Below are positions 5,301-8,877 of a DNA stretch of 47,387 bases, in pieces. Origin of the DNA: a virus (lineage: Duplodnaviria > Heunggongvirae > Uroviricota > Caudoviricetes); IMG/VR virus record IMGVR_UViG_2859827302_000001; one strand, written 5' to 3'. How positions within the stretch are numbered: the first letter of the stretch is position 1; every line of letters starts with the position of its first letter. The notes below the pieces were generated by a model. The model worked only from the letters and a program-made list of their open reading frames with translations, did not search any database and had not been told where the DNA came from. The position numbers were made by a program, and so were the translations under genes.

Positions 5301-5625
5301 TGGCAGCCTCCTTTGCCGGGATTTCTAACTTTTGAGTGGTTGTATCAAATTCAAACAACTTAACCACGTCATCAAACAGGACATAATCACCATCAGGATC
5401 TTCAGTCATATCTGCGCCACAATCCTGACCGCACGAGTCGCAACCATCCATATCAAGCTCGTATCGCTTCAGGTTTGCGATATTTAATAAATTCAGCGCC
5501 AGTACAGCCAGGTCATAAACCTCTTCGGCAGTGACATCGCTGTTCAGTCCCATTTCATGGCGATATATGATTTTTTCTACTCGTTGTTTTGTGATCGTCA
5601 TTTTTCTCTTCACTCCGATATACAA
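5287..5625 (-). CDS. hypothetical phage early protein
   Basis: 112-aa acidic ORF; likely true start at internal Met (MTITKQRV). Confidence 0.45.
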   Translation of the reverse strand: MYIGVKRKMTITKQRVEKIIYRHEMGLNSDVTAEEVYDLAVLALNLLNIANLKRYELDMDGCDSCGQDCGADMTEDPDGDYVLFDDVVKLFEFDTTTQKLEIPAKEAASEQD

Positions 5626-5847
5626 GGATTACTACACCCCCTCTGCTGATTGCGCGAGCTGGATCCCCTGGTTCCATGCCGTCAATTCCGAAGGCTTCGG
5701 AAAACGCATTCATTGCCTTCTGGCGTTCATCCTGCTTACGGCGTTTATTCCATTTTTTCAGGAACAACAGCGACAGCCACCGTCTGCTGCAGAACACGAT
5801 GTAAAAATAACCAAGGAGCGCCAGGCCGACATTCAGGGCCGTTTCTA
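5555..5847 (-). pseudogene. 5'-truncated ORF abutting IS911 (hydrophobic segment then basic tail)
   Basis: Reading frame runs from the IS911 boundary into 5555 with no start codon of its own. Confidence 0.25.
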
Positions 5848-5893
5848 TGAAGTGGCACACTGAATTTGGCCACCTGAACAGAGGTGATATGCT

Positions 5894-6793
5894 TGAGGTG
5901 TACTGGCAATAGCGGACACTACCATTTGTTCTTTTTTTAAGCAGCCATCTGATGATATTTTTCCCTGAAGGCTGCCGGGGAGATATTCCCCAGACGAGAG
6001 TGACGACGCTGACGATTGTAGAAAATCTCAATGTATTCCCGTATTACTGAGATGGCTTCATCCCGGTTATTAAAACGATAGTGGCTCAGGCTCTCATTTT
6101 TCAGCGTTCCCCAGAAGCTTTCCATCGGAGCGTTGTCGTAACAGTTACCTTTACGCGACATTGATGTTTTCAGACCAGACTGCTCCTGTATGACCCGGTA
6201 ATCGTATGCGCAGTACTGTGAACCTCGATCAGAGTGGTGGATTAGCCCGGCAGGTGGGCGCTGGCTCCTGAGCGCCATAAACAGGGCTTTACCTGTCAGC
6301 TCTTTTGTCATGCGCTCTCCCATGGCGTAGCCGACAATTTCGCACGTATAAACATCTTTGATGCCAGCGAGGTACAACCATCCCTCCTGAGTGGCAACAT
6401 ACGTCAGGTCCGCCACCCAGACCTGATTTGGTGCTGTAGGAGCGAACGTCTGGTTCAGCAGATTTGGCGCAACTGGCAGATTGTGGTTCGGGTTCGTAGT
6501 CGCTCTGAACTTGCGTTTCTGCTTACAGCGTAGCCTTAGCTCCTTACGAAGACGTGCCAGTCGGTCACGACCAACGATGATGCCATTCTCTGCCAGCTCC
6601 GTCTGGAGCCGCCGGGTTCCATATGTTTCGCGAGTGCGGATATGTGCCACCTTAATCTCCAGTTTTAGCCGCTCATCACTTTGTTTTCTGTCTGAGGGTT
6701 CATGCTGTACCCAGTTGTAATAACCGCTCTATTAGCTCCTTCTGATGCCATTCTATTTCAGGAAGGAGTGTCCGTTAAACTCAGGCTACCTCA
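5894..6793 (-). mobile_element. IS3-family element (IS600-like, name uncertain), internally deleted, nested in IS911 left end; TSD GCT
   Basis: Inverted ends TGAGGTGTACTGGCAATAGCGGACACT... and TGAGGTAGCCTGAGTTTAACGGACACT...; GCT at 5891..5893 and 6794..6796; only 900 bp, OrfA missing. Confidence 0.65.
5937..6650 (-). pseudogene. IS3-family OrfB transposase fragment
   Basis: 237-aa DDE-type ORF (HSDRGSQY, NCYDNAPMESFW) with no upstream OrfA. Confidence 0.7.
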
Positions 6794-6822
6794 GCTCACC
6801 TCAGAACAACACAGGTGCTCCA

Positions 6823-7125
6823 ATGAAAAAAAGAAATTTTAGCGCAGAGTTTAAACGCGAATCCGCTCAACTGGTTGTTGACCAGAAATACACGGTGGCA
6901 GATGCCGCCAAAGCTATGGATGTTGGCCTTTCCACAATGACAAGATGGGTCAAACAACTGCGTGATGAGCGTCAGGGCAAAACACCAAAAGCCTCTCCGA
7001 TAACACCAGAACAAATCGAAATACGTAAGCTGAGGAAAAAGCTACAACGCATTGAAATGGAGAATGAAATATTAAAAAAGGCTACCGCGCTCTTGATGTC
7101 AGACTCCCTGAACAGTTCTCGATAA
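6823..7125 (+). CDS. IS911 OrfA
   Basis: [10 protein letters not shown]...; near-identical to copy 1. Confidence 0.8.
7074..7080 (+). promoter_or_regulatory. IS911 A-AAA-AAG -1 frameshift site (OrfAB fusion)
   Basis: Heptamer at end of OrfA; -1 frame continues into OrfB frame. Confidence 0.6.
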
Positions 7126-7151
7126 TCGGGAAACTCAGAGCGCATTATCCT

Positions 7152-7991
7152 GTGGTCACACTCTGCCAAGTGTTCGGGGTTCATCGCAGCAGCTACAGAT
7201 ACTGGAAAAACCGTCCTGAAAAACCAGACGGCAGACGGGCTGTATTACGCAGTCAGGTACTTGAGCTACATGGCATCAGCCATGGTTCGGCCGGAGCAAG
7301 AAGCATCGCCACAATGGCAACCCGGAGAGGCTACCAGATGGGACGCTGGCTTGCTGGCAGGCTCATGAAAGAGCTGGGGCTGGTCAGCTGTCAGCAGCCG
7401 ACTCACCGGTATAAACGTGGTGGTCATGAACATGTTGCTATCCCTAACTACCTTGAAAGGCAGTTCGCCGTGACCGAGCCAAATCAGGTGTGGTGCGGTG
7501 ATGTGACCTGTATCTGGACGGGTAAGCGCTGGGCGTACCTCGCCGTTGTTCTCGACCTGTTCGCAAGAAAACCAGTGGGCTGGGCCATGTCGTTCTCGCC
7601 GGACAGCAGGCTCACCATGAAAGCGCTGGAAATGGCATGGGAAACCCGTGGTAAGCCCGGCGGGGTGATGTTCCACAGCGATCAGGGCAGTCATTATACG
7701 AGCAGGCAGTTCCGGCAGTTATTGTGGCGATACCAGATCAGACAGAGTATGAGCCGGCGCGGAAACTGCTGGGATAACAGCCCAATGGAACGCTTCTTCA
7801 GGAGTCTGAAGAACGAATGGATGCCGGTGGTGGGTTACGTAAGCTTCAGCGAGGCAGCTCACGCCATAACGGACTATATCGTTGGATATTACAGCGCACT
7901 AAGACCGCACGAATATAACGGTGGGTTACCCCCAAACGAATCGGAAAATCGATACTGGAAAAACTCTAACTCGGTGGCCAGTTTTTGTTGA
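7152..7991 (+). CDS. IS911 OrfB
   Basis: Identical 279-aa product to copy 1. Confidence 0.8.
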
Positions 7992-7999
7992 CCACTTCA

Positions 8000-8877
8000 A
8001 GTGGCTGGACCAGTGTCTGGCGCAGTTCTGGCGGGTGCTGAAACCTGCCGGAAGTCTTTACCTGTTCTGTGGTCATCGCCTGGCATCTGATATCGAAATC
8101 ATGATGCGTGAACGCTTCAGTGTGCTGAACCATATTATCTGGGCAAAGCCGTCCGGACGCTGGAACGGGTGCAACAAGGAAAGCCTGCGGGCGTATTTCC
8201 CCGCCACAGAGCGCATTCTGTTCGCGGAACATTATCAGGGGCCGTACCGCCCGAAAGATGATGGCTATGAGGCGAAGGGCAGGGTACTGAAACAGCATGT
8301 GATGGCCCCGCTGATTGCTTACTTTCGTGATGCGCGAGCTGCCCTGGGGATAACGGCAAAACAGATTGCAGATGCCACAGGAAAGAAAAACATGGTGTCG
8401 CACTGGTTCAGTGCCAGTCAGTGGCAGCTACCGAACGAAAGCGATTATCTGAAATTACAGTCGCTGTTTGCCCGGGTGGCAGAAGAGAAACATCAGCGGG
8501 GAGAACTGGAAAAGTCCCATTACCAACTGGTCAGCACATACAGTGAGCTGAGCCGGCAGTATGTGGAGCTGCAGAGTGAATATAAAAATTTGCGGAGGTA
8601 TTTCGGTGTGACGGTGCAGGTGCCGTACACCGATGTGTGGACGTATAAACCGGTGCAGTACTATCCAGGGAAACATCCGTGCGAAAAACCGGCAGAAATG
8701 TTGCAGCAGATAATCAACGCGAGCAGTCGTCCGGGAGACCAGGTTGCAGATTTTTTTATGGGCTCAGGTTCAACGGTAAAAGCGGCACTGGCGCTCGGGC
8801 GTCGTGCGATTGGCGTTGAACTGGAGACCGGACGTTTTGAGCAGACAGTCAGGGAAGTTCAGGATTTAATCGTTTGA
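8000..8877 (+). pseudogene. phage DNA methyltransferase (beta-class N6A/N4C type), 5' end removed by IS911
   Basis: C-terminal FFMGSGST (motif I) before a conserved tail; the N-terminal catalytic motif region is absent; ORF start lies inside the IS. Confidence 0.65.

Follow-up and report, generated by a model that had tools for sequence, protein, structure and literature searches.

The closest phages to the prophage studied here are two independent ones with complete genomes, Escherichia phage PhiR49_2 (PV340570.1) and the Shiga toxin (Stx) 2a-converting phage Stx2_EH2246 (LC567837.1). Both have the same gene order as the lineage analyzed in this work, namely int, xis, ea-type open reading frames (ORFs) and DUF4752, followed further on by cI, cro, roi, O, DnaC, helicase, YdfU, Q, methylase and tRNA-Met/Arg/Arg, with ~10.6 kb lying between the DUF4752 and methylase genes. 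PhiR49_2 is 99% identical to our lineage at the DUF4752 region, and the methylase of Stx2_EH2246 is ~90% identical. We have analyzed a stretch of 47,387 nucleotides (IMG/VR record IMGVR_UViG_2859827302_000001; the whole stretch is hereafter called the window), which covers at least the left two-thirds of a defective lambdoid prophage lying in mlrA (yehV) of a Shigella chromosome. Its cI-to-Q module is missing, and a copy of the insertion sequence (IS) IS911, copy 2, marks the scar.

A second group of known prophages shares the integration site. The lambdoid prophages found at yehV/mlrA in E. coli, which we take to be of the CP-933V/Sp15 Stx1 type, have an identical 84-aa excisionase, a homologous integrase and mlrA adjacent. 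They differ from the window lineage in their early region, which carries Gam, RecT, YqaJ, Kil, cIII, N, SieB, cI, cro, cII and O. The sister genomes described below, PhiR49_2 and Stx2_EH2246 have neither Gam/RecT/YqaJ nor N genes, and their replication genes are of the DnaC/DnaB type. A look-up with the excisionase returned only unrelated E. coli prophages, the protein being ubiquitous. An earlier note on this DNA had called the element a yehV prophage, which is borne out by the 3′ part of mlrA at its left end and by the adjoining int and excisionase genes.

An IS911 copy between two truncated genes

IS911 copy 2 spans positions 5848-7999 on the plus strand. From sequence reading and repeat comparison, the tip of its left inverted repeat (IRL), TGAAGTGGCACAC, starts at 5848 and the tip of its right inverted repeat (IRR), GACCACTTCA, ends at 7999. 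The terminal inverted repeats (IR) of IS911 start with TGAAGTGG, and both tips are present in copy 2. The IS911 sequences of the window are 99.8% identical, over their full length, to elements annotated as “IS3-like element IS911 family transposase.” Without the nested element described below, copy 2 and the other IS911 of the window (copy 1) are each 1249 bp long and 1 base apart, and the two pair as an inverted repeat over 1207 nt.

The sequences bordering copy 2 are GTTTCTA on the left and AGTGGCTGG on the right. The bordering triplets are therefore CTA and AGT, and there is no 3-bp target duplication. The left deletion junction reads CTA|TGAAGTGG and the right one CACTTCA|AGTGGC; as longer strings, the left junction of the window is GGCCGTTTCTA+TGAAGTGGCAC and the right one CCACTTCA+AGTGGCTGGACC. 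The earlier note had read the flanks in the same way, and a matching 3-bp repeat was not found. The missing duplication is a mark of rearrangement after insertion and no argument against the identity of the element as IS911.

On its left, copy 2 abuts the remnant of an early-left ORF of the DUF4752 family (5555-5847, minus strand), which covers positions 9-93 of the 94 positions of phrog_667. The remnant lacks the start codon and the first 8 codons (25 nt), its homology ends abruptly at 5847, and in tblastn its alignment with the homologues in PhiR49_2 and Stx2_EH2246 starts at their residue 9. The full gene in the sisters encodes 105 aa.

On its right, copy 2 abuts the 3′ remnant of an N6/N4 DNA methyltransferase gene (8000-8877, plus strand; residues 58-349), which matches the Pfam N6_N4_Mtase profile (PF01555) over positions 27-219 only. 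Homology of this flank to the sisters begins at 7999/8000, and the remnant begins 172 nt into the gene, its first 57 codons being gone. The intact sister methylase has 349 aa, with TDPPYF at residues 34-39 (DPPY at 35-38). This DPPY motif lies within the 57 deleted codons and is missing from the window remnant, whereas the S-adenosylmethionine (AdoMet)-binding FxGxG motif (FMGSGS) is kept, so that the remnant does not combine the DPPY and FxGxG motifs of a beta-class N6/N4 methyltransferase. The earlier statement that copy 2 joins a truncated early-left ORF to the 3′ part of a methylase thus holds, with 8 codons lost from one gene and 57 from the other.

We have also considered a hybrid promoter at the IRR/methylase joint. 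Scanning the plus strand between 7800 and 10000 for promoters gave no sigma-70-like site, and the joint thus creates no promoter of this type.

The earlier note described a single IS911 at this place and did not mention a second element nested in it. The IRL end of copy 2, its first 46 bp (5848-5893, plus strand), matches bases 1-46 of copy 1 at 100%. The remainder (6794-7999, plus strand) holds orfA (6823-7125), the orfB ORF (7152-7991) and the IRR tip ending at 7999; an A6G slippery site (motif ttaaaaaagg) lies near 7075, at the orfA/orfB overlap. Between the two parts, a 900-bp IS600 remnant (5894-6793, minus strand) interrupts copy 2 after base 46, between IRL and orfA, and is bordered by a GCT/GCT duplication (5891-5893 and 6794-6796). 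It is 99.9% identical to annotated IS600 and maps onto the 1264-bp elements in two pieces: both ends are kept, and ~364 bp including orfA are deleted internally (900 vs 1264 bp). The sole ORF called in it encodes 237 aa of the rve type. By its sequence, the remnant would be classed as an internally deleted member of IS600. Because it sits where it does, the transposase genes of copy 2 are cut off from their own IRL end. The same end of IS600 recurs as a 253-bp fragment at 42041-42292.

The missing module and its ancestral state in sister genomes

We have searched the 47-kb window by tblastn with the 34 intervening proteins of PhiR49_2 and Stx2_EH2246, and none of them gave a match, while the flanking and lysis proteins were matched as expected in the same search. 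This confirmed the observation of an IS911 scar devoid of target duplication together with a missing module. Among the genes that the earlier note had listed as absent, cI, cro, the O-like gene and Q are indeed gone, whereas exo/bet/gam, N, lambda P and nin do not belong to this lineage; that part of the list fits the O157-type yehV prophages with the same excisionase.

The window is 100% identical to CP026828.1 over 21.6 kb. Using exact-protein look-ups, we have found seven sisters with the same prophage by mlrA: CP026807.1, CP026823.1 (Shigella dysenteriae 96-3162; PMC7373316 supplement), CP026840.1, CP026805.1, PSSQ01000001.1, PSST01000003.1 and AKNG01000044.1. Right arms were compared, via nanS-p, for CP026807.1, CP026823.1 and PSSQ01000001.1. 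The left arms of all seven are >99.9% identical to the window up to 5849 and then continue into a full DUF4752 gene, IS911 and the genes from cI through Q. The right arms of the three are 99.8% identical from 7999 onward, with Q, IS2, a 65-aa ORF and the intact methylase upstream. Compared with these intact yehV prophages, which keep the module between the breakpoints in all seven cases and are collinear with the window, the DNA absent from the window can be listed gene by gene.

Between the breakpoints, the sisters carry the start of DUF4752, IS911, cI (218 aa, with a helix-turn-helix and an S24 peptidase domain), a cro-like gene (75 aa), two pRha-domain genes, an O-like gene (an HTH_36 protein), DnaC-like and DnaB-like genes, DUF968/YdfU, Q (Phage_antitermQ), IS2, the 65-aa ORF and the 5′ 172 nt of the methylase gene. 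Relative to the CP026807.1 composite (positions 11094-22941, or ~493.4-505.2 kb of CP026807.1), the lost DNA amounts to 11,848 bp (61 + 1249 of IS911 + 8244 of early genes + 1331 of IS2 + 791 + 172) and spans DUF4752 codon 8 to methylase codon 58.

The sisters resemble the window in the mlrA site, in arms that are >99.7% identical and in the layout of the tRNA, nanS-p and lysis genes. They also share with it an IS1 (12649-13417) abutting the 3′ end of the DUF1327 gene, which is present in the three sisters with compared right arms and in two short draft contigs; this common insertion is a marker of common descent. Unlike the window, the sisters keep the cI-to-Q genes, an intact integrase, the 349-aa methylase and IS2 after Q. 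The window alone lacks the 11.8 kb and carries IS911 in int and, among its late genes, an IS3-family element of 1310 bp and an IS2.

The IS911 of the sisters lies 59 bp to the right of the left junction of the window (11155-12403 in sister contig L021, reverse complement). Its flanks are CAC and GTT, again with no duplication, and ~1.9 kb of PhiR49_2-like early-left DNA is missing at this point. Both features suggest an older IS911-associated deletion in the common ancestor. Copy 2 is not this insertion, since the sister copy stands 59 bp further right and has other flanks.

Probable deletion of the module and its possible routes

We consider it highly probable that the prophage lost ~11.8 kb by an IS911-bounded deletion, with the ancestral state kept in the sisters. 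An IS stands at the joint, no target duplication surrounds it, the flanks are collinear and the sisters have extra DNA between them. The earlier proposal of an IS-mediated deletion or rearrangement agrees with these data, and we read the event as a deletion because neither the order nor the orientation of the two flanks differs from the sisters.

Several points weigh against this reading. The right junction was found in one complete assembly only, and a look-up with the 309-aa fused methylase gave the source genome alone. The absence of the module extends over the 47-kb window, and re-insertion elsewhere in CP026828.1 is possible; the exact sister cI protein occurs on >1000 contigs, so it gives no pointer to a module elsewhere in that genome. 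Exact-protein look-ups found no intermediate strain having IS911 at one site and the module present. The sisters’ IS911 being 59 bp off the left junction, a one-step origin from the sister layout is impossible and at least two events are required. Finally, the three IS911 copies compared (the two of the window and that of the sisters) vary only at positions 364 and 660, and single-nucleotide polymorphisms are thus too few to reveal a hybrid element.

We infer the order of events, the recombination route and the physical loss of the segment from the cell as follows. The recent ancestor would have had the order int, xis, ea-type ORFs, DUF4752, IS911, cI, cro, two pRha-domain genes, O-like, DnaC-like, DnaB-like, DUF968, Q, IS2, 65-aa ORF, methylase, tRNAs, lysis and late genes. 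An IS911 insertion with a small deletion would have come first, in the common ancestor. A second, larger deletion (11,848 bp) would have taken place in the window lineage, creating two new junctions and leaving one IS911 at the scar. In its simplest form, this route would involve two more IS911 insertions, directly oriented, at CTA in DUF4752 and at AGT in the methylase gene, and homologous recombination between those two copies would then give one hybrid IS911 with one flank from each. Such a two-copy route would predict the strings GATTACCTGAAGT+TGAAGTGGCAC (hypothetical left side of an IS911 at AGT) and CCACTTCA+CTATGGTTAGTTG (hypothetical right side of an IS911 at CTA). Recombination of two directly oriented IS911 copies is the most likely route, and the data fit a transposase-made deletion too.

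A deletion made by the IS911 transposase itself, and not by RecA recombination of two resident copies, is a tentative alternative that we rate as possible and rather less likely. The IRR would have been joined to a mimic of the IRL end in the methylase gene, by IR-targeted transposition or by intramolecular transposition of an IS dimer. For IS911, a second, IR-targeted insertion mode (Loot 2002) and active tandem dimers (Turlan 2000) are documented, as cited in PMC9333248; the IS911 targeting work is cited here through that article and PMC2909936. The right breakpoint lies inside the methylase sequence TGA|AGTGGC, which equals the first 9 nt of the IS911 IRL (TGAAGTGGC), facing IRR; this 9-mer is located at 7997-8005 in the window and at 8052-8060 in sister contig L003. 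Outside IS elements, TGAAGTGG has five occurrences in the 36.5-kb sister composite, and the post hoc probability of a breakpoint falling in one of them is ~0.001-0.002. The sisters’ IS911, 59 bp from the left junction, is a possible donor.

Other features of the junctions argue against a transposase-made deletion. The right junction is 3 nt inside the IR-like tip, whereas a canonical IRR-NNN-IRL joint would be 3 nt outside it. Past the 9-nt tip the target is unlike the IR (16/36 matches), and binding of the transposase depends on the subterminal IR sequence. No IR-like target is found at the left junction, which moreover is not the one present in the sisters, so a second event would still be needed. 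Moreover, a plain insertion duplicating AGT in TGA-AGT-GGC gives the same sequence. We find it doubtful that the right junction is a natural footprint of IR-targeted IS911 transposition, with IRR fused inside a 9-nt mimic of the IRL tip (TGAAGTGGC). If this were true, short mimics of the IR tip in ordinary genes could direct ~10-kb transposase-made deletions in Shigella. A microhomology deletion between the IRL tip and the methylase 9-mer was also considered and rejected: it would remove the IS, yet the IS is kept with IRR at the joint.

Whichever of these routes was taken, recombination between two resident copies being preferred, the outcome would be a loss of the segment. The cI-to-Q segment might instead have been relocated by IS911 recombination, through an inversion or through excision and re-integration. 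Shigella genomes contain many copies of IS911, IS600, IS1 and IS2 and are heavily rearranged (PMC7373316), and an inversion between IS copies also yields an IS without target duplication, the state in which copy 2 is found. Nevertheless, we regard relocation as very unlikely. Copy 2 has prophage DNA on either side, arranged and oriented as in the sisters, and a single inversion would put foreign or inverted DNA on one side; in addition, relocation costs more steps than deletion. An inversion between the two inverted IS911 copies of the window is excluded: the TGT/TGT of copy 1 is intact, and the intervening DNA runs collinear with that of the sisters.

Both junctions are carried by CP026828.1, a single 4.64-Mb contig. 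The left junction, including the IS600-in-IS911 nesting, occurs unchanged (100% identity) in L030, a draft contig from short reads, and eight such short contigs from other assemblies were counted by look-up. An assembly artefact, in which two real IS911 copies with the module between them were collapsed by the assembler, would accommodate a right junction seen in one assembly and the tendency of short-read drafts to break at IS elements, but it is hardly credible given that single source contig, the recurrence of the nested left junction in independent drafts, and the ~10 kb of unique sequence that a collapse would drop and that assemblers normally keep as a separate contig.

A grounded prophage and its relatives

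The IS911-bounded deletion, which we retain as the preferred reading, is accompanied by damage to the integrase gene. IS911 copy 1 (1259-2507, minus strand; 1249 bp; 99.8% identical to annotated IS911) lies inside int and is a simple insertion with a perfect 3-bp target duplication, TGT/TGT. It is not present in the sister genomes, whose alignment overlaps by the 3-bp TGT. The insertion splits the gene into two halves (657-1258 and 2508-3195, together 657-3195, minus strand), with Phage_integrase on one and Arm-DNA-bind_2 on the other; the uninterrupted sister integrase has 428 aa.

Measured against an inducible lambdoid prophage, the window has int split and contains no homologue of cI, of cro or of the O-like, DnaC/DnaB-like and Q genes. 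Because int is split by copy 1, no excision is expected. Because cI/cro, the replication genes and Q are lacking, the element should be unable to hold or leave lysogeny normally, to replicate or to switch on its late genes; with no repressor, no replication origin/initiator genes and no Q, there would be neither replication nor antitermination at the late promoter. Late functions are further hit by IS1, the 1310-bp IS3-family element, IS2 and the IS1 in the tail-fibre gene. The earlier conclusion that the prophage cannot be induced or replicate is thus over-determined, as it follows from the missing immunity, replication and Q genes, from the split int, and from IS1, the IS3-family element and IS2 in the late genes. 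With the split int and three further IS in lysis and late genes, we view the prophage as a permanently grounded remnant.

The left end of the prophage borders the 3′ part of mlrA (yehV) (1-582, minus strand; Pfam MlrA_C, MlrA_helical and MerR_1), its chromosomal neighbor. This mlrA remnant has a 66-bp in-frame deletion at ~320-328, between 9-bp direct repeats, giving 211 aa vs 233 aa in all seven sisters. Beyond int lies the excisionase gene (3229-3483, minus strand; Pfam DUF1233, phrog_539), and an identical protein adjoins int and mlrA in other genomes. Pfam and PHROGs placed ea22-type ORFs in the left arm.

The kept late region starts with a cluster of tRNA-Met(CAT), tRNA-Arg(TCG) and tRNA-Arg(TCT) genes (8927-9176, plus strand; ARAGORN). 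To its right are a nanS-p-type esterase, holin, the DUF1327 gene, endolysin, Rz and lambda-like head and tail genes, and the window stops within the prophage, at tail-fibre assembly, acetyltransferase and DinI genes. The IS3-family element (15679-16988, 1310 bp) lies in the Nu1/terminase-small region and is IS629-like by size and AL1L pseudoknot; IS2 (19736-21066) lies at the W/portal boundary. Neither is at these positions in the sisters. Further right, an IS1 (40552-41320) truncates the tail-fibre gene, an IS66-family element with a split transposase occupies ~42.3-44.7 kb, and an IS1 variant (91% identical) is found at 45060-45841.

The layout of methylase, tRNAs and nanS-p is the setting in which Stx2 phages carry stx. 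Where Stx2_EH2246 has stx2AB, after the tRNAs, the window is without toxin genes: tblastn found no match to Stx2A or Stx2B in the window, and the stxA and stxB genes that a Stx-converting phage carries between the tRNA cluster and nanS-p are not there. The tRNA-to-nanS-p interval (9177-9680) is ~1.35 kb shorter than in Stx2 phages. An in-frame stop at 9911-9913 interrupts the nanS-p-type frame (9644-11575), dividing it between an 89-aa portion with DUF1737 and a 542-aa portion with SASA. All sisters likewise have two genes called here, while Stx2_EH2246 has a single 631-aa gene. The element is an stx-free relative of Stx2 phages with an empty toxin slot after the tRNAs, which may be of minor use for tracing Stx-phage backbones in Shigella.

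For annotation, the element should be recorded as a defective, non-inducible remnant with int, the DUF4752 ORF and the methylase gene as pseudogenes, and not as a candidate active phage. Since the sisters keep the ancestral state, the stepwise decay of a prophage through IS can be followed cleanly here: first came an ancestral IS911 insertion with a small deletion, then, in one lineage, the 11.8-kb deletion and additional IS insertions.

Cryptic lambdoid prophages of E. coli K-12, such as DLP12, Rac and Qin, were likewise grounded when IS insertions and IS-bounded deletions cost them integration, immunity or replication functions. In Shigella, IS-driven decay of prophages and genes has been described by Hawkey et al. 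2020 (PMC7373316). Compared with the IS-decayed Shigella prophages of that study, the prophage of the window shows nothing different in kind; it is an ordinary case of IS-driven prophage decay in Shigella, with nothing that challenges current understanding.

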